Part shown: piece by piece, positions 9,205 to 47,472 of the stretch
How the letters are laid out: every line of letters starts with the position of its first letter
Numbering within the stretch: the first letter of the stretch is position 1
Source: an uncultured Clostridia bacterium
GTDB lineage: Bacteria > Bacillota > Clostridia > Peptostreptococcales > Anaerovoracaceae
Length of the DNA stretch: 64,000 nucleotides
Direction of reading: 5' to 3'
NCBI GenBank assembly: GCA_934278925.1
Contig: CAKQWJ010000005.1
Span: 19,615-83,614 of the forward strand
Position numbers and translations under genes: made by a program
The notes under the pieces: model-generated
The model's database searches: none
Told to the model about the DNA's origin: nothing
Seen by the model: the letters and a program-made list of their open reading frames with translations, nothing else

Positions 9205-9415
9205 GCCGCCGGCCGGGCCGCCTTCTTCCTTTTTTCAGGCCCGCGGTTCGCGCTCGAAAACCGAATTCATTGGCTTTGCGGGCAGGCGAGCGCGAACTTT
9301 GCCGCCGGCCGGGCCGCTTTCTTCCTTCTTTCAGGCCCGCGGTTCGCGCTCGAAAACCGAATTCATTGGCTTTGCGGGCAGGCGGGCGCGAACCGGGCCG
9401 CCGGCCGGGCCGGGC
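9205..9415. repeat. Tandem direct repeat, ~2.2 copies of a 95-96 bp unit (gccgccggccgggccgcyttcttcc…ggcccgcggttcgcgctcgaaaaccgaattcattggctttgcgggcaggcgrgcgcgaac)
   Basis: Copies start at 9205, 9301 and 9396 (partial). Each unit contains the perfect 11-bp inverted repeat gttcgcgctcg/cgagcgcgaac around a ~31-nt loop that includes 'ggctttgcggg', the same motif seen in the other two arrays. Confidence 0.85.
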
Positions 9416-11000: not shown

Positions 11001-11273
11001 TTGCCTACCTCCTTGGTTGCTTATTAGCACTCACTATACGCTTTTCTGTTTTAAAATTCAATATTTTACAGGAATGTTTATCCTATGTACCAAATTATAT
11101 GCTTTTTCGCCCGCTTCCTCAACCGTTAATCCATCGATAAAAAGAATTTCATCTCCCCATTTACGATAGATATAATCAATAGATTTTTTTGAAGATTTAA
11201 TATGAATTTAGCATTTTGAGGAGTATAATATAATAAAAGAAGAAAATGGTGCGAAGAAAACTACTAAAGTACA

Positions 11274-11654
11274 TTGAGTATTCCTTTCGACTTTTATAAC
11301 AAATCTGACACGGATGAAATAAGGCGGTACACGGAGGAAAGATATGGCATTTCAATTGATTACATAAACCTTTTAAATCAGCGATATCTGTATCAACAAT
11401 CAAATGATGCGGGAAAAAGAAAGTGGTTAACGGTGGAAGATGATTGTGTCGTTGATTTCTGCAACAATTTTGAGGGAGAATTATACCGAATATATCAAAA
11501 GGACAACGTCTGTATACTGATGAAAAGGATTGATGAACAACTTCGGGGGTACCATTCTCCTTTGACGAATTCGGTATCTGCAGATGAGAAACATTCATTA
11601 GCAACCTGGCAAGAAGACATTTCAGAATTGATAATTGCAGCGCAGTTGGATTAA
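11274..11654 (+). CDS. Hypothetical protein in an AT-rich islet (TTG start as given by the track; the true start is uncertain)
   Basis: 126-codon ORF in a visibly AT-rich stretch with no recognisable motifs. The coding call rests only on ORF length and codon look. Confidence 0.3.
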   Translation: MSIPFDFYNKSDTDEIRRYTEERYGISIDYINLLNQRYLYQQSNDAGKRKWLTVEDDCVVDFCNNFEGELYRIYQKDNVCILMKRIDEQLRGYHSPLTNSVSADEKHSLATWQEDISELIIAAQLD

Positions 11655-11713
11655 ATCCGGTTCATAATTTCCAGTATAACATTAAAACACTGATCGTAAA
11701 GGAGATGATTATC

Positions 11714-11782
11714 ATGTCAATTTATGGAAAGAGAATGTGCTCTTCACTGACCGGAGATACCCCTGCTGGTGATTTGAATTAA
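11714..11782 (+). CDS. Candidate small peptide (22 aa: MSIYGKRMCSSLTGDTPAGDLN)
   Basis: RBS AAGGAG sits 10 nt upstream of ATG 11714, in an AT-rich intergenic stretch and directly upstream of a second small ORF. Confidence 0.3.
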   Translation: MSIYGKRMCSSLTGDTPAGDLN

Positions 11783-11796
11783 TTGGTGGTATAGCT

Positions 11797-11913
11797 ATGG
11801 ATAGTATTATGAAAGCATTAGAGGCGAGAGGACAAGCGTTAACGCTTCCTCTGATTGCTGCGGGAATCATTTTAGCGGTTGTACTGATTTGGAATTTTCG
11901 TCCGAAAAAGTAG
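11797..11913 (+). CDS. Candidate small hydrophobic peptide (38 aa: MDSIMKALEARGQALTLPLIAAGIILAVVLIWNFRPKK)
   Basis: RBS-like GGTGG sits 7 nt upstream. The peptide has one predicted transmembrane helix and a C-terminal basic tail, the architecture of type I toxins or small membrane regulators. Confidence 0.35.
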   Translation: MDSIMKALEARGQALTLPLIAAGIILAVVLIWNFRPKK

Positions 11914-12031
11914 AATATTAATTAATCAATACTGGAAATATTGAGCTCCAGGGGTGAGGCCATGAAACATTTCGCCCCTGGAAATAAATGTAAAACGGGG
12001 CTTCGAAATATGAAAAGAAAGGAGAATCAAT

Positions 12032-17249: not shown

Positions 17250-19532
17250 CTACTTCAGTCCGGTGAGTTCCAGCACTTCCTCCACCCGGCTTACCGGCAG
17301 GATGTCCAGCTTCTCCCGAACTTCCTCTGCCACATCCTTCAGATCTTCCTCGTTCTCCTTTGGAATGAGCACCTTGCGGATGCCGGCCCGCTGTGCCGCC
17401 ATGAGCTTCTCCGGCAGCCCGCCGATCGGCGTCACCGCGCCCCGCAGGGACACCTCGCCGGTCATGGCGATTTCCGGCGATACCGGTCGGTTCTCCACCA
17501 GGGAGGTCAGCGCCGTAGTCAGGGTAATTCCCGCGGAAGGACCGTCCTTCGGCACCGCCCCTTCCGGCACGTGGATGTGGATGTCGTTCTCCTCGAAAAG
17601 CGCCGCTTTGTCCGGGTGCATGGATTTCACCAGGCTCACCGCAATCTGAGCGGACTCCTTCATCACATCTCCCAGCTGTCCGGTGAGGATCAGCTTGCCG
17701 CTGCCCTTTGTGAACAGGGTTTCCACAAAAAGAATTTCGCCGCCGGCCCGGGTCCACGCCAGTCCGGTCACGATGCCCGGCTGTTTTTTCTCCAAAATCC
17801 GGTCGTGACTGATCGGACGCATATCCAGATATTCCCGGAGATCCTCTTTCCGGACCTCCACCTTCGCCGGTTCTTCCCCTGCTTCCTTCACCATTTTCAC
17901 CGCCGCCACTCGGCACAGGGTATCCAGTCGCTTCTTCAGGCCCCGAACGCCGGCCTCCGCCGTGTAATCCGAAATGATGGTCTCCAGCACCTCGTCCGAA
18001 ATCTCCAGATTCTCCTCCCGGATTCCCATGGATTCCATGGCTTTCGGCAAAAGGTGCCGCCGAGCAATCTGGAATTTCTCCGTGGCTGTGTAGCCGGAGA
18101 ACTGAATCACTTCCATCCGGTTCAGCAGCGGTTCCGGAATGGTATCCGTGGAATTGGCCGTGCAGATGAAGAACACGTCCGACAGGTCGTACGGCACGTT
18201 CATGTAGTGATCGGTAAACGTGCTGTTCTGCTCCGGATCCAGAACTTCCAGCAAAGCGCTGGCCGGGTCGCCGTTATAGGATGCGGACAGCTTGTCCACT
18301 TCGTCCAGCACCATCACCGGATTGGACACGCCGCTCTTGTGAATGCCGTTCATAATCCGTCCGGCCATGGCGCCGATATAGGTCCGTCGGTGGCCCCGAA
18401 TATCCGCCTCATCCCGAACGCCGCCCAGGCTGACCCGAACGTATTCCCGCTTCAGCGCCCGCGCAATGCTGCGGCCGATACTGGTTTTGCCCGTGCCCGG
18501 TGCGCCTACAAAAAGAAGGATGGAGCCGGTCTGCTTTTTCTGCAGCTCCATCACCGCAATCTGCTGAATGATCCGGTGTTTCACCTTATCCAGCCCGAAG
18601 TGGTCTTCCTCCAGCACGCTCTCCGCCTCGTCCAGGTCGATGTGCTCCGGCTCCGCCTTGTCCCATTTCAGGGTGGTGACAAAATCCAGATAGTCGTAAA
18701 GCATGCCGGATTCCGGGCTGTTCTGCCCCTCCTGTTTCAGCCGGTTCAGCACCTTCTTCGCTTCCTTCTCGGCCTCCGGGTTCATGCCCGCCTCTTCGAT
18801 TTTCTTCTCGAATTTGCGAACGTCGGAAACGCTTTCCGGATCCATTTCATCCAGTTCCCGCTGCAGAAATTCCATCTGCCGCTGGATGGCCTGTTTCCGG
18901 TACGCCTTCTCGTTCTCATTTTCCTGGGCACTTTCGGCTTCCCCGGTGAGCTTCGCCATCTCCAGGTATTCGTAAACCATGGACTCCATGATTTCCATTC
19001 TTTTTACCGGACTGCTCTCCAGCAGCACCCGATACTTCTCCTCCGGCGTATTGCTCATCCAGATGGACAGGGCGGAAGCGATTTCCCCTACGCTCTCCAT
19101 GTTCTTCAAGTAGCTTTTGGCCATGACGCCCCACGGCACAGTGCTCAGAAACTCGTAAAGCTTCTGCTTCATGCGGTTCACCCGAGGCTGCTCAATTTCG
19201 GGATCCGGCTCCTCCTCGTCCGGAATCCGGCTGATGCTGAGTTCCGCATGGAACGCACCCTTTCCGTTGATGGCATCCAGGCTCACCCGGTCCGTGGTCT
19301 CCACGATGCAGTAGCCGTTCTTGCTCACGTCGGTGACGGTGCCGCCCACGCCCACGGGATAGAAGCCCTCTTCCGTCAGCTCCTTCCAGCTGTCCTCCTC
19401 CCGGGAAAGCAGAAGAATTACCCGTTCTCCCACTTGCGGCAATTGGCCGGTCACCATCCGGTACCGGTCGCTGATAATATATACTTTTCCGTTTGGAATT
19501 ATGATTCGATTATATACAGGTACTAATGTCAT
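17250..19532 (-). CDS. lon: ATP-dependent protease La (Lon)
   Basis: 760 aa with a Lon N-terminal domain, AAA+ Walker A (GAPGTGKTS) and the proteolytic domain containing …DGPSAGITLTTAL… with catalytic Ser. Confidence 0.95.
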   Translation of the reverse strand: MTLVPVYNRIIIPNGKVYIISDRYRMVTGQLPQVGERVILLLSREEDSWKELTEEGFYPVGVGGTVTDVSKNGYCIVETTDRVSLDAINGKGAFHAELSISRIPDEEEPDPEIEQPRVNRMKQKLYEFLSTVPWGVMAKSYLKNMESVGEIASALSIWMSNTPEEKYRVLLESSPVKRMEIMESMVYEYLEMAKLTGEAESAQENENEKAYRKQAIQRQMEFLQRELDEMDPESVSDVRKFEKKIEEAGMNPEAEKEAKKVLNRLKQEGQNSPESGMLYDYLDFVTTLKWDKAEPEHIDLDEAESVLEEDHFGLDKVKHRIIQQIAVMELQKKQTGSILLFVGAPGTGKTSIGRSIARALKREYVRVSLGGVRDEADIRGHRRTYIGAMAGRIMNGIHKSGVSNPVMVLDEVDKLSASYNGDPASALLEVLDPEQNSTFTDHYMNVPYDLSDVFFICTANSTDTIPEPLLNRMEVIQFSGYTATEKFQIARRHLLPKAMESMGIREENLEISDEVLETIISDYTAEAGVRGLKKRLDTLCRVAAVKMVKEAGEEPAKVEVRKEDLREYLDMRPISHDRILEKKQPGIVTGLAWTRAGGEILFVETLFTKGSGKLILTGQLGDVMKESAQIAVSLVKSMHPDKAALFEENDIHIHVPEGAVPKDGPSAGITLTTALTSLVENRPVSPEIAMTGEVSLRGAVTPIGGLPEKLMAAQRAGIRKVLIPKENEEDLKDVAEEVREKLDILPVSRVEEVLELTGLK

Positions 19533-19571
19533 CTCTATTCACCCTTTCTGTGTATTGGTTTGCGGCATCGC

Positions 19572-20051
19572 CTACTTATGATAAGTCTCGTTATTGGCGA
19601 TCTTGAAGCTGCGGTAGATCTGCTCCAGCAGCAGCACCCGGGCCATCTGGTGAGGGAAGGTCATGCGGCTAAAGGAAAGTCCGAAGTCCGCCCGCTTTTT
19701 CACCGCCGGAGACAGCCCCAGGCTGCCGCCGATGATGAAATCCACGGTGGACCGGCCGCTGTCGAAGGTTTTCGTGAGGTGCCGGGACAGTTCCACGGAA
19801 TCCAACATCTTCCCCTCCACCTCCATGGCGATCACGTAATCCGACTCCCCGATTTTGGACAGGATGGTTTCCCCCTCCTTCTCCATCACCTGGCTCTCAT
19901 CCGCCGGCGACGCGTTCTTCGGGAGCTTCGATTCCTTCAGCTCCACAATCTGAATCCGGGCGTAGCCGCCGATTCGCTTGGTGTACTCCGCCACCGCCGC
20001 CTGCCAATATTTTTCCTTTAACTTTCCGATGCAAATAATATTGATGTTCAT
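19572..20051 (-). CDS. rlmH: 23S rRNA (pseudouridine1915-N3)-methyltransferase
   Basis: 159 aa SPOUT-family protein (MNINIICIGKLKEKYW…RMTFPHQMARVLLLEQIYR). Confidence 0.85.
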   Translation of the reverse strand: MNINIICIGKLKEKYWQAAVAEYTKRIGGYARIQIVELKESKLPKNASPADESQVMEKEGETILSKIGESDYVIAMEVEGKMLDSVELSRHLTKTFDSGRSTVDFIIGGSLGLSPAVKKRADFGLSFSRMTFPHQMARVLLLEQIYRSFKIANNETYHK

Positions 20052-30231: not shown

Positions 30232-30395
30232 ATATTTCCTCCTGTCCCTAATTACAAATATGCCTACGCATCCTTGGATTATACTATATTATTGTGGTGA
30301 ATAAAAGAATTTCAACTATCGGGACTGAGTTTTTGGAAGGTTTTTTCAATAGATGGGGTGGGAAGTATAGATTGGATTGATAGGAATGAATCATT

Positions 30396-31079
30396 TCACG
30401 TTAATCCTATTCGCAAAATGTAGCCAACGCCTCTTTTGGTCAATATTTCAAGGTTAGAATCAATACGATTTAACTTTTTTCTGAGTGCGGAAACGTGAAC
30501 GTCAACGGTGCGATTGGAATTGCAAAATCCATAGGTATCGATCTGTGCATACAAAACTTCTCTGCGAACAACGGCGCCTATGTGCTCTATCAAGTTTTGA
30601 AGAATTACTGCTTCATTTTGGGTAAGCTCAACGGAACCGACTGCCGTTTGCAGCTGATATTTTCTTCTGTTAAATGTCATATTTCCAACAGAAATAACGT
30701 TTCCATTTGGAGCCGCACAAAAACACGCTCCCACAGCTTCCAGCAAATCATTGGGCATAAACGGAATCGTAAGATATTTGACAACATTCATGTTGAGTTG
30801 ATTGCACACATTCACGTCCTCGTTATTTTTCAATATCAAAACTACGCTGCGAAGCATATCAGCATCGCTGATATGCTTCGCAATTTTCAATTTCACATTT
30901 TCCAAACTATCTAAATCACACAAAATCAAATCAATGCCCTTAATCTGCAGCAATCTTATCGCAGATGCAGCATCGCTTGCAACCGTTACTTCATATCCGT
31001 AATTAATAAGAAAACTCTTTATGGCTGTTGCGATGACCGCATCAAATTCAATCAAAAGAACCGAATTGCTTGATTTCAT
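30396..31079 (-). CDS. OmpR/PhoB-family response regulator with an atypical receiver domain (orphan)
   Basis: A winged-helix C-terminus is present (…RTVDVHVSALRKKLNRIDSNLEILTKRGVGYIL). The receiver retains the phospho-acceptor region (IDLILCDLD), but the conserved Lys of the KPF motif is Ile (YLTIPF). No histidine kinase is adjacent, and the gene lies in an AT-rich islet. Confidence 0.6.
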   Translation of the reverse strand: MKSSNSVLLIEFDAVIATAIKSFLINYGYEVTVASDAASAIRLLQIKGIDLILCDLDSLENVKLKIAKHISDADMLRSVVLILKNNEDVNVCNQLNMNVVKYLTIPFMPNDLLEAVGACFCAAPNGNVISVGNMTFNRRKYQLQTAVGSVELTQNEAVILQNLIEHIGAVVRREVLYAQIDTYGFCNSNRTVDVHVSALRKKLNRIDSNLEILTKRGVGYILRIGLT

Positions 31080-31088
31080 ATCTCGAAC

Positions 31089-31466
31089 TTAATTCTCCCT
31101 TTTTCTTGCCATTTGAACAATTGAAAATGCACACGCTGCCACTGCTATTGCGATGACCGCACCACCCCATAGAGTTAATCCGGTTGCGATATCCGTCACC
31201 GAATATGCATTTCCATCAAATTCTTTTCCTTGAGTATACACATATAAGAACACTGCTGGAATGAATAATAAATTCCCAACCAGAAATACCAGTCTGTTTC
31301 GCAATAAAATGCATCCCGCAATTACTACGACCAATGCTAAAAATACAAACGGGTTAAGCAAAAAGTGGGTCCCGCGGATTCCGTCAACCCCGGATTGATT
31401 CGTGTACCACACGAAAGGAGAGAGTACTACTACAAGCAACGGAAACACAAACGTCTTATCTTTCAT
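31089..31466 (-). CDS. Small membrane protein (hypothetical, 125 aa)
   Basis: Four predicted transmembrane helices, inside the AT-rich islet and between the regulator and amidase genes. Confidence 0.45.
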   Translation of the reverse strand: MKDKTFVFPLLVVVLSPFVWYTNQSGVDGIRGTHFLLNPFVFLALVVVIAGCILLRNRLVFLVGNLLFIPAVFLYVYTQGKEFDGNAYSVTDIATGLTLWGGAVIAIAVAACAFSIVQMARKREN

Positions 31467-31475
31467 AGAAACCTC

Positions 31476-32438
31476 CTATTTGATTCTTATGATTCGGAAT
31501 GTATTAGTAGCTGCAATCTTTGATATAGACGCATCCACCGCGCTATTTGATCTAGCAGAATATTTCCAATCACCTTTCTTTCCACCTGTTATTATTATAG
31601 TATGATAGTATGCTATTTTTCCACTAGAATTCTTTTTTGCTAATTGAACAACATCACCTAATTTTGCTTTATCTTGCAATGTTGCCCGGTTTTTGCATGA
31701 TATTATGTTCGCGCCCTTACTCTTCCAGTATGTATAAAAATCACTTACTCTCATAAATGCCGTGCTTTGCTTATAACGATGATACGGGTTTGATGACGTG
31801 TAATGGTAGGAATACCAATATTTTGTAGTCCCATATTTGTCTGGTTTTGTCTTATATGATGGAGCATATGTGAATGATTTCCCTCCAGCCTTAATGCACT
31901 GAGAGACAAAATTAGTGCAGTCTGAGCCATATGCAGGATATGCAGGCGTATTTGGATTACGCGCATGTTTCTTTGCATACGAAATTGCTTTTGAGGACGA
32001 AAAACTCTGGTTTGTTGCAAGAGTATCTGATAGGTTATCTGATTCCGCTTTCTCCCGATCATCAATCAAGGCATATGTCGACCAGATTTCTTTTCCTTCA
32101 ATCTTGTTTCGTGCTTTTTTATTAGCATAAGAATCCGGATTGATTACATATAGTGATGCATACGCCATCATTTCCTGATAATTGTCTTGATTAAATAAGT
32201 CTATATCTTTATCAAAGACCAACTGATCTGATAAGAAATCAATATATTCCTTACTATCGATTTTAATTTCAGGGTAATTGTTCTGAATGTATGAGTTCAA
32301 ACAATTTCTTGCTTCTAAAACACTAGTTTTCTCACCAGAATCATCTTCCGCAAAAACCCCCACTGTTAACATACATAGAGTAACAACTAGTAAACATAGA
32401 ACATTACAAATAGATACTTTTTTAACGGTTGAATTCAT
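31476..32438 (-). CDS. Secreted putative amidase-domain protein (Amidase_6-like: …YGSDCTNFVSQCIKAGG…)
   Basis: Start at ATG 32438 (MNSTVKKVSICNVLCLLVVTLCMLTVGVFA, a signal peptide) with RBS AGAGGAGG. The conserved Cys-containing CTNFVSQC motif is present. The gene is AT-rich. Confidence 0.6.
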   Translation of the reverse strand: MNSTVKKVSICNVLCLLVVTLCMLTVGVFAEDDSGEKTSVLEARNCLNSYIQNNYPEIKIDSKEYIDFLSDQLVFDKDIDLFNQDNYQEMMAYASLYVINPDSYANKKARNKIEGKEIWSTYALIDDREKAESDNLSDTLATNQSFSSSKAISYAKKHARNPNTPAYPAYGSDCTNFVSQCIKAGGKSFTYAPSYKTKPDKYGTTKYWYSYHYTSSNPYHRYKQSTAFMRVSDFYTYWKSKGANIISCKNRATLQDKAKLGDVVQLAKKNSSGKIAYYHTIIITGGKKGDWKYSARSNSAVDASISKIAATNTFRIIRIK

Positions 32439-32667
32439 ACGAACCTCCTCTTTTAACACTGCAAATAACCCCCGTTGTTTTTATTTTAAACAGCTTATGT
32501 TAAATTAGTGTTAAGATGTGTTGAAAATATTTAAACACATCTTAAAATTAGTTTATTAAATTTATACACGTCTGCAATTCCAAGTACATGGGACCGTCCA
32601 TGCATCTGTAGGATCCACAAGAGGAAAACATTTTTCTCAGATTCAGCCAGAGGGAAGGTAATCGTGT

Positions 32668-33100
32668 GGGCGCCTCGGAACGGTAGCTCAAGGCTTTGCC
32701 GGGGGTGAGGCGCCAACTCGGGCGGCCCACCGGCGGGCTCCGAGGCAAAATGTTGGCGCCTCGGGACGGTAGTTCAAGGCTTTGCCGGGGATGAGGCGCC
32801 AACTCGGATGGCCCACCGGCCGACGCCGGGGCGAAAAGTTGGCGCCTCGGAACGGTGGCACAAGGCTTTGCCGGGGATAAGGCGCCAACTCGGACGCCCG
32901 GTCGGCGGGCTCCGGGGCGAAAAGTTGGCGCCTCGGAACGGTGGCTCAAGGCTTTGCCGGGGGTGAGGCGCCAACTCGGGCACCCGGCCGGCGGGCTCCG
33001 GGGCATAATGTTGGCGCCTCGAGACGGTAGCTTAAGGCTTTGCCAGGGGTGAGGCGCCAACTCGGACGCCGGCTACTCGGGCGCCGGCCGGCAGGCGCCT
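32668..33100. repeat. Tandem array of ~5 copies of an 86-87 bp hairpin-forming unit (ggcgcctcggaacggtagctcaaggctttgccgggggtga ggcgccaac tcgggcggcccaccggcgggctccgaggcaaaat gttggcgcc)
   Basis: Units start at 32668, 32755, 32841, 32927 and 33013. A perfect 9-bp inverted repeat ggcgccaac/gttggcgcc encloses a ~34-nt loop. The array shares 'ggcgccaac' and 'aaggctttgccgg' with the 4690-5445 array. Confidence 0.9.
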
Positions 33101-33148
33101 TTTAACGCCAGGAAATGAAAAAAACGGCAGAGCCGGAGGCGCTTCTCG

Positions 33149-33751
33149 TTACGCCTCGTGCTCTGCCGCGATTTCAAGATGTTCTGTGGCCGTGCCGTTT
33201 TGGATGTGGATTTCGTATCCGCAGCCGGGGCTCGGCGTCCAGTCGAAGATGTTTTTCTTCTCGCCGGAGAACAGGATTTCCATGATTGCGGAAATCACCG
33301 CTCCGTGAAGGACCGCAATGACTCGCGGATTGTCCTCTTGTAGAAGGGTTTCCAGGCCCCGGTTGACCCGGCGAAAAAAGCCTTCGTAGGAGTCTCCGCC
33401 CGGAAAATCGAATTCCGGCACCTCCCCCTTAAGCCAGCGGCTTCCCAAAGGAGTGGCCAGCACCTCGTCGAAGGTCTTCATTTCGAAAATTCCGATTTCA
33501 ATCTCTCGAAGGTCCGGAATCCGGCCGTGAGGCCTTTCCCCATAGATGGCCTCAAAGGTCTGCTCCGTGCGGAGCATCCCCGAGGTGTACAGCGCAGCGG
33601 CCTCGCCCTCCGGATACAACCCGCGCTGCCGCTTCGCCTCCACCTCCTGCCGGCCGGATGAGGTAATGGGGAGGTCCGTGCTTCCGTAGAACAGCTTCCG
33701 TTCCGTCCCCTCCGTGTTTCCGTGCCGGATTAGATACAATTTTCTTTCCAT
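33149..33751 (-). CDS. Histidine phosphatase family protein (phosphoglycerate-mutase-like)
   Basis: LYLIRHGNTEG catalytic RHG motif; 200 aa. Confidence 0.85.
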   Translation of the reverse strand: MERKLYLIRHGNTEGTERKLFYGSTDLPITSSGRQEVEAKRQRGLYPEGEAAALYTSGMLRTEQTFEAIYGERPHGRIPDLREIEIGIFEMKTFDEVLATPLGSRWLKGEVPEFDFPGGDSYEGFFRRVNRGLETLLQEDNPRVIAVLHGAVISAIMEILFSGEKKNIFDWTPSPGCGYEIHIQNGTATEHLEIAAEHEA

Positions 33752-38390: not shown

Positions 38391-38431
38391 CGAAAGCGGG
38401 GGCTGCCGTCGGCAGCCCCCGCTTTCTTCTT
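38391..38431. terminator. Strong bidirectional terminator (gaaagcgggggctgccgtcggcagcccccgctttc)
   Basis: A 14-bp GC-rich stem with a T-run lies between the flavodoxin gene (+) and the CotH-family gene (-). Confidence 0.8.
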
Positions 38432-38469
38432 TAGGATAACAGATGTTCACATTTCCGGTTCATCCATTC

Positions 38470-41400
38470 CTACCGCTTGGTCTTCAGCACCTTTGCCTTG
38501 GACCAAGATGAATAGATTTTATTCCCCTTTACGGTTTTGTACGTCCGAACCCTCACGTAATATTTCTTCTTCGCCTTTTTCACTTTGAAGGTCTTTTTAA
38601 CCGCACTCTTTTTGCCGACTTTCACAATTCTTCCGGACTTGAAATTCTTGCGGACGGAGTACGCAATCTGGTAACCGCTCACTTGATTCTTCTTCGTTTT
38701 CCAACGAACGTAAATCTTCTTGCCCCGCAGCGCTTTTACTTTTGCTACCGATGGGGTTTTCGGAACAATCCGATATGTCACCGTTCTTTTTTCGCTAAAA
38801 TTACCCTTTCCGGTAATCTCAACGGTTCCGGTTCCCACATTCTTTGCGGTTGCTTTCGATACGGTATAATCCGTTCCCGCCTTCAAAGGAATTCCTTTAT
38901 AGGAAAGCTTTAGGGACGGCTTCTGCGCCTTGCCGGAATATACCAAGTGAGAGGATTTCATCTTTACGCTTACGTATTTCATCTTTCTCGGGATAATCCG
39001 GTAGCTGAGTTCCGCTTTTCCGTTAAATCCGGCATCCTCAATTCCGGTCACCGTATAGGTTGCGTATCCAACATTTACGTTATTCTTAAACGTAATGTTG
39101 TAATCTTTTCCGGCCGTCAGGATATTTCCGTTGTACTTTACCGTAATCTTCGGAGCCACCGGAGATCCGGTATAGCGGGTGTTGTAACGAGAGCTCTGCG
39201 CATATTCACAATCCGCAACATCAACATAGGTGTTGTCATCCGCCTTCTTGGCATGGCAACGGCTGCATTCGTACTCATCGCCGACTTTCTTCCAGTCATG
39301 ATATACATCCCCATCGATGCAGCTGCGATATACGGCGCGCAAGGTTGTGTCCGAAGTCACCGTAATCCGGCTTCCCGGCGTAACCATTTCCCCATCGCAA
39401 TCCCAGCCGTCAAAGAGCATATTTTTATCCCCTTCGGTCGGTGCCGGAACGCGAAGCGTTTTGCCGGATGTGATTTTCCGCACGGTGGACTTCCCTCGGT
39501 CAGCCAGTTCCACATTGCAGTACGAAACCTTTCCGTCGGTCAAAGAGAGGGTGCAGTACTGCTGCTCGTTGTACTCATCTTCCGAGTTCTGGAGCCATAC
39601 CGTCACCACATTCTTGTCGCCAACGCTCTCGGTAAAAAGTTCCGAATCCAACAGGACATCAACATTGTTCTTTCCTTCGATGTTCATCCTTCCCACATAG
39701 TGACCGTTCACGTAATAGCTCAAATACTTGTAAGAGCCATTTCCGAGATCCACATTCAGGTGATATTCTCCGGACTTCTTATTTACCGCTTCGTAATTCT
39801 GCGCGCTGAGGTGGGTGACGTCGTCTCCCTCAAACTTGAGGCTGAACTTATCGCTCAGGTTTACATGCATGGATTTCATGGTGGATTCATCCGATGCAAA
39901 CTGATTGTCCATCCAGTTGAACCTCTTATTCAGCCAGCTCTTGAGCGCTTTGTTGTCCTCTTCAAAACCTCTGGAGTAGTGCCAGCGCTGCTGATTTTTA
40001 ATCCCGGATTCCTCGATGTAATCGTGCCACCGATCCAGGGTGCCGTTTTCTTTCACCGCTTCTTTCAGCGTATCCTCTTTGTCCAGATACAGTTCCCGTG
40101 CTTTTATCGCAAAATACGGATCCTTCATGATTTCGGAGAACCACCACCTGCCGTTCGAAGCCCAAGACACTGCTGAAGATGCGCCGAACGGTGCCACCGA
40201 ATCGGAGCCGTAATCAAAATCCCATACCGGACCGAAATGAATCGGCGCGTCGATGTCTTTGTACATGTACGTACTTCCGGAACCAATCTCGTTGCGCATC
40301 ACTTCCGAGGTCAGCCAGAAGCGCGTCAGGCTGTCCACATCACATAAGTCCACATAGGATAACCGCTTTCCGGCAATATCTTTCGTGCATTTATCCGGGC
40401 TGTAAATTGCATCTTCCAAATTCTGTACGTAATTTCGAATTCCGGAAAATGCCCGGTTGCTGCTATTCAGATATTCCGGATTTTTAAACTGAATCGGTAC
40501 ATTTCGGTCCGTCTTGAACTTGGATATTTCATCATAATATCTATCCATTTCCATAAGGTATCCGCCGTTAACCGACTTCGGTTTCTTGTAGTAATCCGTC
40601 GTGGTGTATTCCTTCCCGTTAAATTTAACGGTATCGGAAGTCATCCAATCCAGATCGGATTTCAGCTGATCTTCCAACTTCTCGGCATCTTCATCGGAAA
40701 GACCGTCCTTTGCCGCAATTCCTTCCGCAATGTCGCCGGCAGCGTTTTCCCAATCGAAAGCATTTACCCGATTCTTGTCCAGCTTCACCGTTTCTGTCAG
40801 CTGATAATTTCCCGCATACTTTCCGTTCAGCACCACGTCGACCCAAACCGAATCCATTGCGGTGGTGCCAATCTGCTTTCCGTAATAGGATGCCAGCATA
40901 TTCCGCATGCAGCTTTCATCGATGTAATTAGCGAGCAATGCCCAGTGCTTGTTTTTGCCCATACCAAACAGATTGGTTTTCTTATCCAGCTTTATTTTGT
41001 ACGGTTTCTTTTCGAAACGCTTCCAAGAAGAATTTCCCCGGCCGCGAATCTGGGTTTTTCCATCGTACAGTGTGGTGTTTTCGCTGTTGTACTTATCACA
41101 GCCTTGGATCTTAAAATCTGCGGTGACGTATGTGTCCTTCGATGTAATGTCCGCGCCGTCCTCCGTGTTGATATATACCACCGGCAATTTGCTGCACAGC
41201 AGTATACACTGGGCGACCTTCTTTTGATCCTTCCATGCTTCCACCCGAATCAATTTCTCCAAATCATCGGATGTCACACAATACTTGCTTCCTTTGCAGT
41301 TAATCTGCTTGTCATCCATGTACCACCGGTAACTGATCCCTTCTGCATCCCCATCGTAGGTTACCGTCAGATTCTCTCCCGGTGAAGCATAGGCTTCGTT

Positions 41401-41526
41401 AAAGTGCACACTCCCCGTTTCCTCTGCATACACAGTTCGAGTGCAGAGGATGCCCGCTGCCCAAAGGGCAGCAAGCATCAGTACCAGTACAGGGATCCAT
41501 GTTCTTTTTTTCAAATTACTATACAT
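38470..41526 (-). CDS. Secreted CotH-kinase-family protein with C-terminal Ig/FN3-like repeats (1018 aa)
   Basis: Signal peptide present. CotH-type region: …RGRGNSSWKRFEKKPYKIKLDKKTNLFGMGKNKHWALLANYIDESCMRNMLASYYGKQIG…. The C-terminal repeated beta-sandwich modules end in a Lys-rich tail. Confidence 0.65.
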   Translation of the reverse strand: MYSNLKKRTWIPVLVLMLAALWAAGILCTRTVYAEETGSVHFNEAYASPGENLTVTYDGDAEGISYRWYMDDKQINCKGSKYCVTSDDLEKLIRVEAWKDQKKVAQCILLCSKLPVVYINTEDGADITSKDTYVTADFKIQGCDKYNSENTTLYDGKTQIRGRGNSSWKRFEKKPYKIKLDKKTNLFGMGKNKHWALLANYIDESCMRNMLASYYGKQIGTTAMDSVWVDVVLNGKYAGNYQLTETVKLDKNRVNAFDWENAAGDIAEGIAAKDGLSDEDAEKLEDQLKSDLDWMTSDTVKFNGKEYTTTDYYKKPKSVNGGYLMEMDRYYDEISKFKTDRNVPIQFKNPEYLNSSNRAFSGIRNYVQNLEDAIYSPDKCTKDIAGKRLSYVDLCDVDSLTRFWLTSEVMRNEIGSGSTYMYKDIDAPIHFGPVWDFDYGSDSVAPFGASSAVSWASNGRWWFSEIMKDPYFAIKARELYLDKEDTLKEAVKENGTLDRWHDYIEESGIKNQQRWHYSRGFEEDNKALKSWLNKRFNWMDNQFASDESTMKSMHVNLSDKFSLKFEGDDVTHLSAQNYEAVNKKSGEYHLNVDLGNGSYKYLSYYVNGHYVGRMNIEGKNNVDVLLDSELFTESVGDKNVVTVWLQNSEDEYNEQQYCTLSLTDGKVSYCNVELADRGKSTVRKITSGKTLRVPAPTEGDKNMLFDGWDCDGEMVTPGSRITVTSDTTLRAVYRSCIDGDVYHDWKKVGDEYECSRCHAKKADDNTYVDVADCEYAQSSRYNTRYTGSPVAPKITVKYNGNILTAGKDYNITFKNNVNVGYATYTVTGIEDAGFNGKAELSYRIIPRKMKYVSVKMKSSHLVYSGKAQKPSLKLSYKGIPLKAGTDYTVSKATAKNVGTGTVEITGKGNFSEKRTVTYRIVPKTPSVAKVKALRGKKIYVRWKTKKNQVSGYQIAYSVRKNFKSGRIVKVGKKSAVKKTFKVKKAKKKYYVRVRTYKTVKGNKIYSSWSKAKVLKTKR

Positions 41527-41548
41527 TTTTCACCTATACCTTTACACA

Positions 41549-44500
41549 TTACTTCTTAATCTTAATTTTCTTTACGCTGGAGTAGCTGCCGTAAATCGTC
41601 TTGCCGGAAACCTTTCTGTACGCCCGAACCTTGTAGTAATAGGTCTTGCCCTTTTTCAGCTTCGTATTGGTCCAGCCCCGTGTTTTGGAACCGGCAGTCT
41701 TCATACAGTGATACTTTCCTTTGCTTGAGGTCGCTCTGTATACTTTATATCCGCCGGCATTTGCAGCCTTTTTCCAAGTTATTTTTACCTTACAGCCCTT
41801 CAGATTCTTCACCGAAGCAACTTTTACCTTGGAAGGTTTTGCCACCTTCTTTGCTTCTTTGATCTTGAAGCTTACCTTCACCGTTCCGGTGTATCCACGC
41901 TTGGATATTCCGGTAACCGTTGCCGTCGCAGTACCCAGCTTCACGTTGTTGGAGTAGGTTACCTTGTAATGGACCTTTTCGGTCAATGCCTGATCTCCGT
42001 CTTTTACCACAACCGGCGTCAATGCCTTGCCGGTGTATGTCTGGTCCGGAGCAGATACCGTGCATTTCGAGAGGGACTTCTTCTTCATGTATCCGGTATT
42101 CGGGTCGAAATCGTAACGAACGCCTTCAATCACGGTCGGTTCCGTTACGTAATCATTGCCCCAGTAGTACCGTGTTCCCACAACCTTATTGTTGGAGTCG
42201 GTTTCGTTCTCGAACGCTCCGCGGAGCAGAACGCCGTTGGTGTCGAATTTGAAGTATCTTGAAGTGACCTTCTTGTTGCCCGGTGTGGCAATCTTCGTAT
42301 CCTTTCCATCTTTGCCGACGTACATCTCTCCATCGTCCGGAGATACGGTGTTATTGTATCTTCTCCTGAAGTAGTACATGTTTCCGTCGATTTCTCTCCA
42401 CCGGATGGCATAAGAGCCGCCGCCTTCATAGTATCTCGTAATCGTCTTCTCTGTTCCGTCCTTCAATGTAACGGTTTCCGTTACGAAACTTCCCTTGACG
42501 AACACGCCTTTCTTGTTAAAAGTAAACTTCTTTCCGTCGATGGTAACCGTACCGGTTGATGCGTAGCCATCCTTGTCCATGTAGTACCAATCATCACCGA
42601 TTGATTCCCAATGGTTCTTGACAAATTCTCCATCTTTCAGATAACGAGGAAGACCGGTTTCCTTATCGGTAACCATGCCGGTCTTATCCGAAGGAATTTT
42701 CTTGGAAATCCCGCAGTTCTTGCAGACCAGCCGGTCATTTACGACTACAAACTCGTGCTGATCATTGGCACAGGTTTCCTTTACCTTCTCCTTACTGTAA
42801 CAGTAATCATTCATCTTCGTTCCATCGGCATCGTAGACATCCACAGAGAATTTCGTATCTGTGGCACTCATCTTGAAGTAAACACCGGTGAAATCATCAA
42901 TCGGCTTTACCGCAAAGTTATACTCTTTGGCATTCGATGGTGGATATGCCTTTCCGCCGGTAGTGCCGCATACGTAGTACACAACACCGTTCTTTTTGTC
43001 CGTCTCTCCCTTTGTGGTCGGATGGGTTCGAACCAGGGAATGATCGTGTCCGGAGAACATAAAATCGATTCCGGCCCGTTCGCAAGCATCCGGAATGTAC
43101 TTCGTGAAGGAAGCGCAGTCGTCTGTCGTCGCATTGGTGCCGTATGGCGGCTGATGGGAAACCACAATCTTCCATTTTGCATTGCTCTTCGCTGCGTCCG
43201 AAACCAGCCACTCGGCATCCTCTTTTGCCGCCTGATCCTTGGAATTATATCCAAGAACCGCAACGTATACATTGCCGTAGGTAACCGAGTAGTGCTGCTG
43301 ATTGCTGATATCAAACAGTTTCTTCTGATTGATTCCTTCCGTGTCTCCGTAGAATTCATGGTTGCCGCTTACGTGAATCATATCGGTTCTGTTAAACGGT
43401 GCCGCGCTGAACATATCCAGAATAGCAGTCCATTCGTTATACAGATTGGAAGTCTCCACGAAATCTCCCGTCTGCACGCCGAAGGAATACTTGTCCTTCG
43501 CCAGATCCTTCATAATATCCTGAAGGATGCTCTTATCCTCTACCTGCGTATCGCCCAGTAGGAAGAATTTCGTATCCTCACCGTTATTGTAAGTGCTGAA
43601 TTCTCGTACATCGGACCAGTGTTCTCCGTCACCTACCTTATAAACGTAATCGCTTCCGCTCTTCAGGTCCGTAACGTTCACGGTGTTGATGTAAATCGTC
43701 TTATTGTTCGTCGCAATCGAAGAACCGTCGAAGTTCAATCTTTCGCAGGTTCCTTCCTGCTCCTTAAAGGCCTTCTCCTTATTTTCTTCATAGTCGCTCT
43801 TCAGCGCCACTTTTGCCACGGCCTTCTTTTCCGCATTCACCGGATTGGACATCCACGTAATGCTCTTGGTATTCTCCGAATTCTTCACCGCATTCAGCTG
43901 GATGTAGGCCGGTGTTCCATCTTCATTTGCACCGGAATTAAGAATCTGGGCGGTTTCGATGAACGAAGGTTTTCCCTGAGCATCCTTTGCATAAATCGAG
44001 ATTTTCTGTGCATCCCGGAATCTCGATGTGGTCAGCGTTCCACGGATATCGGTTTCCCCGATTTTCTCGCCGTCCGCCATATAGATGCCGATTCCTTTTA
44101 CCGTCTTACCATTTTTGTCGGTAACGATAATCTTCGTATCCTCTCCGGCAACCGTATTCTCGACACTAATGTTGTATGCCGACTTCACTTCCATGCGCTG
44201 CGTCTTGCGGGTAAAAGAAAGTTCGTGGTTTTCGCCTTGCTCGTCCGTGTACTCAAAATTACCGGCCGTCACTGCATAGGTGAATTTCTTATCCTTCGTC
44301 AAATCGGTTGGCACACCTACCTTGACCGTCGCAAGATTTCCTTCCCCTGAAACATCCGCATCCGCCTTTTTCTTTACAAAAATCTGAACGCTGTTATCGG
44401 TCTTGTTGTACACCGGCGCCTTCGCTTCTTCGAATCCGTCCGCGTATTCCACCGTATAATCCGAGATGCCCTTGCCCAGTTCGATTTCCGTCGATGCGCT

Positions 44501-47218
44501 GTTCACACATTTCCGATTATCTGCCTTCAGATTCAGGCTAACATGTTCTCCCAAGTACGCTCCGTCTTCCGCCGGATACACGTTTACCTTCGGCTTATTC
44601 TGATCGGTTCCGTCCACATCAAAGGAGAACTTCTTTGTCGTTTCGTTTCCTTCCTTGTCCCGAATCAACACCTTAATGGAATGAGTTCCATTCGGCAAAT
44701 ACCAGTTGTTCAGATAAATCGTATCCTTACTCTTATCCTCCAGCAGGGAATTGTTTTCCAGTGCTTTGTCGGTAATGTTCTTTCCATCGATCCAGATATT
44801 TTTAGTGTTGTAGTCCACGCCGGATGTGTATTTGTTTTCCACATCGGAAACATTCACCTCAAAGTTTGCGGTATTGGACTTAATGGCTTCTTCTTTATTG
44901 TTGAGACCGATTCCGTTTACCGAAATGCTGTTAATCAGCGGGTTGTCCGTATCCGTCGTATTCGCACCGTATACGAACTGTACGTTATCGACGTAAATGG
45001 CGCCCTTGATGTCCGATTTCGGAACCCGAACAATCTTTCCATCTTCCTTGATGAAGTTTCCTCCCGACGGCGGCAAATACATCAGACGAATGGTCTCTCC
45101 GCCAATCAGCTTAAACGGTCCCTTCAGCGGTTCTTTGCTTTGCGGATTAACTAGTTTTGCTTCCACGTACTTCCAGCCGGTCCAGTCAATGCCTCCCAGT
45201 TCCTCTGCATTTTCATTGCTACAGCCGTTCGGCGTAAAGTTCAGTGTCTGTACCCCGCCGGTTCCGTCCTTCACGCGGATTCGAAGCCAGAAATTCGGCG
45301 TTCCCTTCGGTGCGTATACGTACATGCCAATCGCCGATGGATTTCCGGGAATTTCCTGGGTCTCATTGGAGAATCCAACACACGCACCCTCGGTGCTTCC
45401 TCCGACACCGGAGAAATCGTAGTTCAGCTTGAGGGAATTATTTCCCTTCCGAACCGGTTCTCCACTGGAGATTCCAACAATTTCTGCGGACTCCTTTCCA
45501 CCTCTGGAATCCTCGGCACCGGTTGTTGGATCCACACTGTTCGGATAATGTCCGTATAGCAGCTTCGACGAAGAAGAGGTTCCCAGCCATTTGCCGTCCT
45601 TATCCCATACGCCGCGAATCTGCCCACCGCCGGCATCAAAGCCTGCACGATTAAAGGTCCAATAATCTTTCGCCGCAACGGTTTTTCCGTCGACCACCTG
45701 ATCTTCAAAATCCATGGCAACAGTAGGCTGCAGGCCGACGACAACGTCTACCTTTCCATTCACTTCTTTGTTGTGCTTATACGCACAGTGAACGGTTCCG
45801 TACAGTGTTTTTCCATCGGAAGACACGAATTTGTTGCCGTGGAATTCTCCCAGCTTAACATTCGGGTCGGTCACTTCTTTTTTGTCCGCATCTTTCAGAT
45901 CTGTTACGCTCCAGTCAAAATCATCATCGGAATAATGAATCTGACGATTCTTGTATTTTACAGTGAGACCGAGATCTGATTCCTTTTCAAATCCAAGCGC
46001 CACTTCTTCATTCTCAAAAGAGATGGAATCCGGCTGCTGAACTTCGATGGTCGTTGTTCCGACTACTTCGTTTCCAACCTTCAGTTGTACTTCTGCCGTT
46101 CCGGTTTTCTCACCGGCGGTAAATGCGCCGTCTTCCGTGATGGTACCCATCTGGCTGTCCTTCAGTGCAAACTTTGCGCCGGACGGAATATTTGCCTTTC
46201 CTCCCGCACTGTCTACGCCTGTTGCCTTGAACTGCACCTTCGATCCCGGTGTGTACACTTCATTATCCGGAGTAATCGTCGCATGGTCGAATTCCCCGCT
46301 TCCCTTCGCATCGGAATACACCATCAGTGCAGAAGATACTTTTCTTTCCACGCCGTCGGACGGGCTGTTCTTCACCGTCAGCTCATCCGTTCCTTCGGAC
46401 TTGCTGGCATAGGTATACGAACCGCCGCCATCAATATAGATTGCTTCCTTACAGCCCAATTTCACCATGGTCTGTGCAGTTTCTTCATAAGTCATTCCTA
46501 CGGATTTCGGTGCCTGTCGTCCGTCTGCACCAAAGAGAACTACTTCCCCGTTTTCCTTTATACCAACCGCATTTCTAGGAATTCTGGCTTGATCTGCACG
46601 GACCCAATCTTCCAGGTCCACTTTACCATCGGTGACCAACTTAATCGGTCCGCCAATTGCTTCTTTGACGTCGCTCAGGTCTACCGGTTCGTGCATATCA
46701 CGAATTACCGCCTTGCCCGGTTTTCCATCTTCTCCTTTCAGTATAGCGAAATAATAGTAACCTTCGCCCCAGCCGCTGGTGCTCTTTACTACTTTTCCGT
46801 TCATGACAAGGACTCCGGTCGGTTCTCCGGTAGTCATGTTAAAGTAGTCGCCATTCGTCGCCGCTACGATATTCTTGCCGGTCTTCTTGGTCACTGCGGC
46901 CGCCTGATCTCGAACGGTCTGCAGTCCCCACTTTCCACTGGTATCGTAATCCTTGTAGCTGGCTAGGATTCCGGCTTTTTTTGTTAAATCCACAGTCGCT
47001 GCATACCCTTGTACCTGATTATCTCCTTGGGAGTCTACCAGTGTGATATGCTGTTCTTTCACTCCCGGTGCAATATTGTACTGCTTCAGCGAAGTCAGCT
47101 GTTTTCCTTCCGGAGCGGTAAAATCCGCAGCGAAAACGCTTTCCAAATTGCAGAGAGTCAGAAGAAATACACAGCTCAACGCTATGCTGAACATTTTCTT
47201 CAGTTTTCCCATTTCCAT
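41549..47218 (-). CDS. Giant secreted multidomain protein (1889 aa): N-terminal phosphodiester-glycosidase (NAGPA/DUF2233-like) domain, central calcineurin-like metallophosphoesterase, cell-wall-binding (WYY/D-DG) repeats and C-terminal FN3/Ig-like domains
   Basis: Signal peptide MEMGKLKKMFSIALSCVFLLTLCNLESVFA. Metallophosphoesterase motifs are present (…GDTQVEDKS…GDFVE…GNHEF…VSHQPPYG…GHDHS…), as are choline-binding-like repeats (GDDWYYMDKDGYASTG). Confidence 0.6.
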   Translation of the reverse strand: MEMGKLKKMFSIALSCVFLLTLCNLESVFAADFTAPEGKQLTSLKQYNIAPGVKEQHITLVDSQGDNQVQGYAATVDLTKKAGILASYKDYDTSGKWGLQTVRDQAAAVTKKTGKNIVAATNGDYFNMTTGEPTGVLVMNGKVVKSTSGWGEGYYYFAILKGEDGKPGKAVIRDMHEPVDLSDVKEAIGGPIKLVTDGKVDLEDWVRADQARIPRNAVGIKENGEVVLFGADGRQAPKSVGMTYEETAQTMVKLGCKEAIYIDGGGSYTYASKSEGTDELTVKNSPSDGVERKVSSALMVYSDAKGSGEFDHATITPDNEVYTPGSKVQFKATGVDSAGGKANIPSGAKFALKDSQMGTITEDGAFTAGEKTGTAEVQLKVGNEVVGTTTIEVQQPDSISFENEEVALGFEKESDLGLTVKYKNRQIHYSDDDFDWSVTDLKDADKKEVTDPNVKLGEFHGNKFVSSDGKTLYGTVHCAYKHNKEVNGKVDVVVGLQPTVAMDFEDQVVDGKTVAAKDYWTFNRAGFDAGGGQIRGVWDKDGKWLGTSSSSKLLYGHYPNSVDPTTGAEDSRGGKESAEIVGISSGEPVRKGNNSLKLNYDFSGVGGSTEGACVGFSNETQEIPGNPSAIGMYVYAPKGTPNFWLRIRVKDGTGGVQTLNFTPNGCSNENAEELGGIDWTGWKYVEAKLVNPQSKEPLKGPFKLIGGETIRLMYLPPSGGNFIKEDGKIVRVPKSDIKGAIYVDNVQFVYGANTTDTDNPLINSISVNGIGLNNKEEAIKSNTANFEVNVSDVENKYTSGVDYNTKNIWIDGKNITDKALENNSLLEDKSKDTIYLNNWYLPNGTHSIKVLIRDKEGNETTKKFSFDVDGTDQNKPKVNVYPAEDGAYLGEHVSLNLKADNRKCVNSASTEIELGKGISDYTVEYADGFEEAKAPVYNKTDNSVQIFVKKKADADVSGEGNLATVKVGVPTDLTKDKKFTYAVTAGNFEYTDEQGENHELSFTRKTQRMEVKSAYNISVENTVAGEDTKIIVTDKNGKTVKGIGIYMADGEKIGETDIRGTLTTSRFRDAQKISIYAKDAQGKPSFIETAQILNSGANEDGTPAYIQLNAVKNSENTKSITWMSNPVNAEKKAVAKVALKSDYEENKEKAFKEQEGTCERLNFDGSSIATNNKTIYINTVNVTDLKSGSDYVYKVGDGEHWSDVREFSTYNNGEDTKFFLLGDTQVEDKSILQDIMKDLAKDKYSFGVQTGDFVETSNLYNEWTAILDMFSAAPFNRTDMIHVSGNHEFYGDTEGINQKKLFDISNQQHYSVTYGNVYVAVLGYNSKDQAAKEDAEWLVSDAAKSNAKWKIVVSHQPPYGTNATTDDCASFTKYIPDACERAGIDFMFSGHDHSLVRTHPTTKGETDKKNGVVYYVCGTTGGKAYPPSNAKEYNFAVKPIDDFTGVYFKMSATDTKFSVDVYDADGTKMNDYCYSKEKVKETCANDQHEFVVVNDRLVCKNCGISKKIPSDKTGMVTDKETGLPRYLKDGEFVKNHWESIGDDWYYMDKDGYASTGTVTIDGKKFTFNKKGVFVKGSFVTETVTLKDGTEKTITRYYEGGGSYAIRWREIDGNMYYFRRRYNNTVSPDDGEMYVGKDGKDTKIATPGNKKVTSRYFKFDTNGVLLRGAFENETDSNNKVVGTRYYWGNDYVTEPTVIEGVRYDFDPNTGYMKKKSLSKCTVSAPDQTYTGKALTPVVVKDGDQALTEKVHYKVTYSNNVKLGTATATVTGISKRGYTGTVKVSFKIKEAKKVAKPSKVKVASVKNLKGCKVKITWKKAANAGGYKVYRATSSKGKYHCMKTAGSKTRGWTNTKLKKGKTYYYKVRAYRKVSGKTIYGSYSSVKKIKIKK

Positions 47219-47472
47219 TTTCCATTCCTTTCTTCAAACTTTATTCGATGGACGATCATCGGTGGTATAAAAATACAATTTAAGTCTACCCCTTCGTTAT
47301 ATATCTGTCACTGCATTTATAGTTTAAATAAACCTTAAATATACCATAAATTTTCTCAATTCATTATTGTTTACATTTATATTCACCGGAGCATCTATTC
47401 AGGATGCATATATACATCGAAAAAAGCTGTGGTATAATCATAGGAAATCAAACCATCAAGGGAGGATTAGAG

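Follow-up and report, generated by a model that had tools for sequence, protein, structure and literature searches.

The Array and Its Setting

The DNA analyzed here (the window) is a stretch of 64,000 nucleotides from contig CAKQWJ010000005.1 of an uncultured Clostridia bacterium of the family Anaerovoracaceae (assembly GCA_934278925.1), and its subject is a tandem array of hairpin units on the + strand at 32665-33076. To the right of the array stands a histidine phosphatase gene (33149-33751, - strand; Pfam His_Phos_1, E = 1e-30), which forms a conserved flank of normal GC content common to 11 loci. This gene ends in an intrinsic terminator, a strong hairpin with a U7 run (33117-33169, - strand; -33.8 kcal/mol, z-score -4.86), and in the direction of its transcription the array comes just past that terminator. 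To the left, an AT-rich spacer (32460-32664) runs from the array to the start codon of an Amidase_6 gene and presumably holds the promoter region of the latter; the array thus fills the space from a terminator to the next promoter. The Amidase_6 gene (31476-32459) belongs, together with the genes for a 125-aa membrane protein (31089-31466) and an OmpR-type response regulator (30396-31079), to a low-GC islet at 30390-32459, delimited by Pfam matches and GC content, in which all three genes lie on the - strand in DNA of GC 0.35-0.42. Across 30-32 kb the GC content is 0.39-0.40, against about 0.55 on either side. Pfam and the GC profile therefore bear out the setting given in a preliminary description of this DNA, which had placed the array by a histidine phosphatase and an amidase gene, at the edge between normal-GC and AT-rich sequence.

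Tandem Repeats Finder delimits the array at 32665-33070 as 4.7 copies with a period of 86 bp (87% matches, 0 indels), and a profile search of the window with nhmmer locates five units at 32667-33076. Two 9-mers alternate along it at exact 43-bp steps, GGCGCCAAC starting on the + strand at 32709, 32795, 32881, 32967, and 33053, and its reverse complement GTTGGCGCC at 32752, 32838, 32924, and 33010. Copies of this 9-mer in the window number 19, against 0.85 expected by chance, and none of 100 shuffles reached 19. The two arms form a perfect 9-bp stem in four of the five units, as the preliminary description had stated for about five tandem units of this period; in the first unit, GTGGGCGCC replaces the regular 5' arm. 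Arm pairing reaches 11 bp (GTTGGCGCCTC/GAGGCGCCAAC), and these arms enclose about 30 nt that hold the loop motif AAGGCTTTGCCGG, which every one of the five units carries, the last with a single mismatch. Each 86-bp unit comprises a conserved 52-nt hairpin half followed by a variable 34-nt half with a second, weaker hairpin.

All five hairpins, on the + strand, are recognized by a covariance model. Unit 1, with its degenerate 5' arm GTGGGCGCC and 3' arm GGCGCCAAC, occupies 32666-32717 (match 32663-32720, 52 bits). Unit 2 (32752-32803, 62.6 bits) reads GTTGGCGCCTC…GAGGCGCCAAC around the loop AAGGCTTTGCCGG and folds singly into a 12-pair stem; units 3 (32838-32889) and 4 (32924-32975) score 63 and 65.4 bits, and unit 5, the last (33010-33061, 61.7 bits), carries one change in the loop motif (GCCAGG). 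The array ends in a truncated variable half (33062-33103, + strand) with a GC hairpin, GGCGCC-N8-GGCGCC, and then TTTT, an end that is kept in orthologous arrays.

A Covarying Hairpin around a Shared Loop

Two further arrays of the window consist of the same element. The larger, at 4686-5445 on the + strand (also given as 4705-5435), was found by Tandem Repeats Finder, nhmmer, and the covariance model; it consists of 8.6 units of 86 bp, whose arms are GTTGGCG(T)/(G)CGCCAAC, and lies upstream of the gene for a secreted Big_2 protein. The smaller, at 9203-9412 (+ strand, 70 bits), has 2.2 units of a 96-bp subfamily and lies upstream of a CHAP-domain gene; its arms differ (GGTTCGCGC/GCGCGAACC) and its loop motif is identical. 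A covariance-model scan shows all 15 hairpins of the window in direct tandem on the + strand, with the flanking genes on the other strand. The loop motif AAGGCTTTGCCGG, found 21 times in the window where 3.7 matches are expected, also occurs in the larger sibling array, and this alters one part of the preliminary description: the shared arm, motif, and 86-bp period that it reported for the arrays at 32665-33076 and 4690-5445 stand, and the two arrays do differ in sequence, whereas the loop, said to be what sets them apart, contains the common motif. They differ most in columns 53-86, the other half of the unit, and in the stem extension.

Further subfamilies came to light with a covariance model for which 56 representative hairpins were used. 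At least seven stem variants (GTTGGCGCC, GTTGGCGTG/CACGCCAAC, GTTTGCGCC, GGTTCGCGC, TTTGCTCCCCG, GACGTGGTGCC, and CTTGGTGCA) share one loop consensus. The loop motif of about 30 nt, …ACGG…AAGGCTTTGCSGGG…, is common to all subfamilies and across the further ones takes the form …ACG(G/A)…AAGG(C/G)TTTGC(C/G)GGG…. Units of a subfamily with a 107-bp period have the arms TTTGCTCCCCG/CGGGGAGCAAA and occur in loci L016, L021, L085, and L029; other subfamilies carry GACGTGGTGCC…, CTTGGTGCA/TGCACCAAG, GTTTGCGCC/GGCGCAAAC, or GTTGGCGTG/CACGCCAAC. The 96-bp type is found at about 10 sites, and 86-bp arrays often have its units, equally oriented, joined to them at the 5' end.

Conservation is specific to position: over 170 full-length units, the columns of the arms have a mean conservation of 0.94, those of the enclosed loop 0.81, and those of the second half 0.73, and units within an array are 81-89% identical to one another. 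In the alignment designated A2, 81% of stem cells are paired, against 30-52% when the partners are slid, and covariation scores 0.238, a value that none of 500 shuffles reached (0.116 in shuffles); pair 7-52, for instance, is G-C in 32 sequences, C-G in 18, and U-A in one. In a second alignment, A3, both partners have changed in 10 of the 13 pairs of the stem. The stems of the subfamilies thus differ and yet remain complementary, which is clear covariation, and the sequence of the stem is free to change provided that complementarity stays. The same does not extend to an inner helix of the loop (16-18/34-36), in which only 68-78% of cells are paired and covariation is inconsistent in both alignments. 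The acting strand cannot be called from G·T-type and A·C-type mismatches, as wobble-type mismatches of both kinds are present: T·G appears at position 8 of the stem, and C·A within 96-bp units of L010.

Spread, Copy Number, and Orientation

A strict scan with a 22-base motif, over one genome per species, matched Mogibacterium kristiansenii WCA-MUC-591-APC-4B, a metagenome-assembled genome (MAG) labeled 'uncultured Clostridia' from Hadza stool, and a Mogibacterium sp. MAG, all three 93-96% identical to the window outside the arrays; one further, single-copy match in an alphaproteobacterium is probably due to chance. A slightly looser motif added 90 metagenome stretches, mostly from the gut, and no match in viral contigs. 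Plasmid and phage collections gave no BLAST match to the repeat, which leaves a phage or plasmid origin without support. With a profile made from the units of the window, about 92 arrays with 274 distinct units were collected; their flanks cluster into 16 left and 21 right types, which translates into about 15 genomic sites in the species complex. Three repeat periods (86, 96, and 107 bp) occur in this superfamily, which in the collections scanned is restricted to M. kristiansenii and its close relatives. The idea of a diversifying family at many loci, rather than a local duplication, is thus confirmed by the number of sites and by the several subfamilies. A search of the accessible literature returned no account of such repeats in Mogibacterium or Anaerovoracaceae, and the family is apparently previously undescribed.

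Copy number per site ranges from 1 to 12 across strains, and orthologous arrays are only 83-89% identical between strains, as compared with 93-96% for their flanks. Many metagenomic and MAG contigs terminate within arrays. The blocks are GC-rich (about 0.6-0.7) inside otherwise AT-rich spacers, and they are placed past the terminator of the upstream gene, 77-600 bp before the next start codon. Gene orientations, taken from a codon log-odds gene model, show the nearest gene antisense to the array at 11 of 16 left flanks (11:5) and 14 of 19 right flanks (14:5), and two array sites are fully reversed relative to their genes. GC skew tracks gene direction, so that effects of replication and of transcription on array orientation are inseparable.

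At L016:4700-5400, one + unit comes after a tRNA gene with its terminator, and next to it stands an inverted array of about five units with an 87-bp period, which belongs to a different stem subfamily (arms CTTGGTGCA/TGCACCAAG). At L044:1-553, in one strain known from a metagenome, an array of at least seven units with the arms GTTTGCGCC/GGCGCAAAC lies right past the terminator of a SPOUT methyltransferase gene, and the contig ends within it; at the counterpart in the window (19532-19572), lon directly follows the SPOUT methyltransferase gene.

Arrays and Strain-Variable DNA

At the islet itself, strains fall into two haplotypes. A long one, with the response regulator, the 125-aa protein, and Amidase_6, is found in the window and in L007, L019, L044, and L053; a short one, in L008/L001, L013, L037, L043, and L088, has a lone 122-aa gene whose product is 57% identical to the 125-aa protein. 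Outside the islet the two are 93-96% identical. In both, the array forms the right-hand edge of the divergent segment, and its first unit is cut at a different point in each, which places the junction within the array.

Overall, alternative flanks directly at the array were observed at about seven of about 10 sites sampled in more than one strain. Low GC content (below 0.45) characterizes 13 of the 37 flank types, against 7% of 1-kb windows at least 3 kb away from arrays. Other arrays are flanked by genes for a type I specificity subunit, for an N6-methyltransferase, and for SHOCT-domain proteins, by an IS4-like transposase gene, and by an IS200 element. Arrays therefore often coincide with strain-variable and often low-GC accessory DNA, an association that does not in itself imply a cause.

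The locus orthologous to 4.7 kb of the window is the only one at which a gene lies between two arrays. Six loci (L010:287-1237, - strand; also L014, L100, L052, L061, and L068) have there a low-GC gene for a 316-aa protein, which is missing from the window and from M. kristiansenii and has homologues confined to the same species. The protein has no match in Pfam, NCBIfam, PDB, or PHROGs, and its sole informative similarity (E = 3e-18) is to the C-terminal domain of the PADLOC candidate defence protein PDC-S68, which makes the gene a candidate defence gene.

Further junctions are seen at L082:343-600, where a unit is broken off by low-GC DNA inside the conserved loop, after …GGCACAAG, and at L031:1-260, where a unit is cut after GTTGGCGTATCCCG by low-GC DNA, next to an N6-methyltransferase gene. 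At L002:580-1260, an IS200-type element (Y1_Tnp, 127 aa) with end hairpins of its own lies about 0.3-0.5 kb from an array and is missing at the orthologous site of other strains.

The window also contains variable or low-GC DNA at a distance from its arrays. A segment of about 9 kb at 38429-47443 codes for a CotH-domain protein of 1018 aa and for one of 1889 aa that has NAGPA and metallophosphatase domains; neither M. kristiansenii (L003) nor Mogibacterium sp. 18NH (L013) has this segment, and L001 and L083 hold its first part up to the limits of their sequences (about 40.8 and 42.2 kb). At 11000-12000, where the GC content falls to 0.36, only small open reading frames (ORFs) with no Pfam match are present, about 1.6 kb from the 96-bp array and not adjoining it.

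Searches for a Known Identity

Known kinds of repeats and structured elements were compared with the array one by one. Rfam gave no match to the array at gathering thresholds, and in a permissive scan of 32450-33200 nothing was better than E = 0.2. The sole Rfam and ARAGORN match in the window is a tRNA-Thr (CGT) on the - strand at 3354-3428, and units of a tRNA-like nature were rejected on these grounds. A coding array was discarded as well, given that the 86-bp period is not a multiple of three and the reading frame rotates; the long - strand ORFs over the arrays (32548-33060; L010) are by-products of GC-richness with no ribosome-binding site. Nor do the arrays consist of clustered regularly interspaced short palindromic repeats (CRISPR), for the segment between hairpins is itself repeated (conservation 0.73, 170 units) instead of forming unique spacers; no cas genes adjoin the arrays, whose neighbors encode phosphatase, amidase, response regulator, Big_2, LVIVD, CHAP, and P5CR proteins. 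Integron cassettes were dismissed because the units stand head to tail with no ORFs between them and no integrase is found in the flanks. Restriction-site avoidance of GGCGCC was also considered, and 17 occurrences outside the arrays, with 24.7 expected, are unremarkable.

Terminal inverted repeats of the sort found in miniature inverted-repeat transposable elements (MITEs) are present, since GTTGGCGCC…GGCGCCAAC bound each 52-nt hairpin; no parent insertion sequence (IS) was found, the ends of the nearby IS200 and IS4-like elements being different from the repeat. As intergenic repeats of 86, 96, or 107 bp at about 15 sites in 1-12 copies, the arrays qualify as minisatellites or variable number tandem repeats (VNTRs) resembling mycobacterial interspersed repetitive units (MIRUs). 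Repetitive extragenic palindromic (REP) sequences are imperfect palindromes of 20-40 bp; the element here is extragenic and palindromic, with a 9-13 bp stem, a loop of about 30 nt, and 52 nt in total. The alternating orientation of REP units is not seen, as the units stand in direct tandem and inverted neighbors are rare (L016). Because defining features of CRISPR, integrons, MITEs, and REP sequences with their REP-associated tyrosine transposases (RAYTs) were absent where looked for, the family fits only the broad kind of bacterial intergenic hairpin or tandem repeats.

Interpretation

The reading that we favor, at slightly better than an even chance, is that the array is a recombination-prone intergenic hairpin repeat like BOX or like REP sequences and the bacterial interspersed mosaic elements (BIMEs) that they form, and that it belongs to a lineage-restricted, non-coding superfamily. 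The hairpin is under constraint, dispersed, and unstable, and the subfamilies of stems have each spread to several loci, as expected of mobile repeats. From here on we infer. Position-specific conservation, compensatory stems, unstable copy number, and location in non-transcribed spacers point to copying between spacers, now or recently, and the lack of a promoter of its own and of an associated gene was counted as further support. Units would be copied to new spacers by a trans-acting activity that recognizes the hairpin and the loop on single-stranded nucleic acid; arrays would then grow and shrink by slippage or unequal crossing-over, and the dispersed, nearly identical blocks could, by analogy with REP/BIME, BOX, and the intergenic mosaics of Neisseria, act as points of crossover or insertion. 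Were they to do so, it would be understandable that the Amidase_6 islet ends inside the array at 32665-33076.

Several observations weigh against this reading. No site lacking the repeat could be retrieved, and mobility is for that reason read from the distribution alone. Across sites, the 2.5 kb next to the arrays have no protein family in common, be it of transposases, of RAYT-type proteins, or of any other kind, although a RAYT gene may lie farther away. The only nearby Y1_Tnp gene (L002) is that of the IS200 element with its unrelated end hairpins, and no target-site duplications are present at array edges, which differ by site. The conserved loop of about 30 nt is unusual in REP-type elements and fits a role in RNA or in protein binding equally well. 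As to covariation, alignment A3 was fitted to the covariance model and is biased to its structure, and independent events are few, roughly one per subfamily. The role at boundaries meets difficulties of its own. The preliminary description had suggested that the repeats mark or promote boundaries of accessory DNA, and this holds as an association, through the alternative flanks at about seven of about 10 sites and the 13 low-GC types among 37, and is weakened by borders that have no repeat, among them the following: the left edge of the islet (about 30389) is free of repeats in both the hairpin scan and the strain comparison, where the array marks only the right junction of the two haplotypes, no hairpin units are found at the borders of the 38429-47443 indel, and no repeats border the low-GC patch at 11-12 kb. 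Likewise, the flank types support a preference of the repeats for low-GC surroundings, whereas the raw adjacent 1-kb windows do not, 11% of them being of low GC content as compared with 7%, a difference that is not significant. Junction positions inside units vary (L082, L031, and the islet), many arrays have conserved housekeeping genes on either side, among them those for TrpRS, an aminopeptidase, and PstS, structural breaks are common in these genomes at large (about 17 per 100 kb of flank), and every locus was retrieved through its array, a sampling biased for an association with variable DNA.

It is also conceivable, albeit unlikely, that the arrays are genes for structured non-coding RNAs, whose conserved loops would serve as sponge or scaffold for an RNA-binding protein, or cis regulators of genes for surface and cell-wall functions. 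A conserved loop closed by covarying stems is indeed the classic signature of a functional RNA hairpin, and the + strand folds more stably than the other (-44.6 vs. -36.8 and -43.9 vs. -30.9 kcal/mol per unit); neither strand is favored by the wobble-type mismatches, though, and Rfam returned nothing. A + strand promoter-like site, TTGAAA-16-TAAAAT, does stand upstream in the spacer beside the array (32521-32548), yet both of its hexamers are mutated in M. kristiansenii and no conserved promoter precedes arrays elsewhere, while the GC hairpin that lies downstream with its TTTT (33062-33103), also a point for this view, does not significantly exceed shuffled sequence in stability (fold z-score -1.06). 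Several downstream genes are secreted or cell-wall functions (Big_2, CHAP, Amidase_6); cytoplasmic housekeeping enzymes are found among them too, arrays take both orientations relative to genes (11:5 and 14:5, with opposite neighbors in L016), and anything from 1 to 12 copies is tolerated. Unlikely to the same degree is a role as duplex or cruciform DNA, in which the arrays would provide phased sites for a nucleoid protein or gyrase and act as topological or transcriptional insulators between neighboring transcription units. A gyrase or insulator function has been proposed for BIME-2 of E. coli, and the comparison rests on that established knowledge. Consistent placement from terminator to next promoter, GGCGCC cores every 43 bp (about four helical turns), and GC-rich blocks (about 0.6-0.7) in AT-rich spacers would all suit such sites, as would a function tolerant of copy-number variation. 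A duplex site needs no complementarity between its arms, however, and the arms covary; moreover, no candidate binding protein was identified, and turnover that is fast relative to the flanks speaks against strong constraint by the host.

The least probable of the readings weighed is that the arrays are neutral minisatellites, with the adjacency of the islet being coincidental or owed to spacers that tolerate insertions. Hypervariable copy number, evolution faster than that of the flanks, the abundance of structural breaks throughout these genomes, adjacent windows that are not significantly low in GC (11% vs. 7%), and the repeat-free left border of the islet all agree with it. Neutral decay or local duplication would nevertheless not yield compensatory stem changes common to subfamilies present at several loci, conservation differs by position (0.94 in the arms vs. 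0.73 in the second half), and dispersal to about 15 sites requires some copying mechanism. A bolder proposal, only a little less doubtful, is that hairpin and loop are the recognition site of an enzyme acting on single-stranded DNA or RNA and that arrays are integron-like landing pads, devoid of an integrase, at which this lineage would exchange accessory genes lying between conserved core genes, or else that they specify a new multi-hairpin RNA that titrates a protein. The accessory genes at array junctions include restriction-modification subunits, the PDC-S68-domain gene, and surface hydrolases.

Significance

For Proteobacteria, pneumococci, mycobacteria, and Neisseria, intergenic repeats of this sort have been studied well; to our knowledge, they have hardly been described in gut Clostridia. 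The class to which the element belongs is familiar, and its unit design is unusual. Since many contigs end in arrays, the family breaks short-read assemblies and could mislead binning and pangenome analyses, and the range of 1-12 copies per site can serve directly as a set of markers in strain typing. Should the arrays indeed promote the exchange of neighboring genes, they would help to explain the turnover of defence and surface genes in a common gut commensal. Finally, a long conserved loop on a freely covarying stem points to a specific and searchable binding partner.

Comparison with Known Repeat Systems

The MIRU/VNTR loci of Mycobacterium tuberculosis resemble the arrays in being intergenic tandem repeats of 40-100 bp at many loci, with strain-specific copy numbers that are useful in typing. 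MIRUs lie within operons, however, where translation often couples them to the genes on either side, whereas the arrays occupy non-transcribed spacers; moreover, unlike the units described here, MIRUs are not defined by a covarying hairpin. In Neisseria, the intergenic mosaic elements (dRS3/RS arrays) and the Correia elements that flank 'minimal mobile elements' likewise alternate short inverted repeats with repeat segments, in intergenic places where the accessory genes differ from strain to strain. Exchange there proceeds by homologous recombination, which may be a further likeness. Their sequence is unrelated, and they depend on natural transformation and on dRS3 as a target of phage integration, for which nothing comparable is shown here.

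The REP/BIME elements of Enterobacteria and Pseudomonas, mobilized by RAYTs, share more with the family. They too are extragenic hairpins with compensatory stem subfamilies, they form clusters of variable length between genes, often past terminators, and they are known as hot spots of insertion and recombination. In place of a tight palindrome of 20-40 bp, the element here is a 52-nt hairpin with a conserved loop of about 30 nt; its units are in direct tandem, with no GTAG-type 5' motif and no RAYT gene in the available flanks, and its host is a Gram-positive gut anaerobe.

A Gram-positive host is what the family has in common with the BOX elements of Streptococcus pneumoniae (boxA-(boxB)n-boxC). 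No sequence relationship between the two was found, and the arrays differ from BOX in having no fixed terminal A and C modules, larger units, and several stem subfamilies for one loop motif. Like the arrays, BOX elements are intergenic and modular, carry an internal module in variable tandem number, are predicted to form stable secondary structures, and have no transposase of their own. The composite arrays, in which 96-bp units are followed by 86-bp units, recall this modularity.

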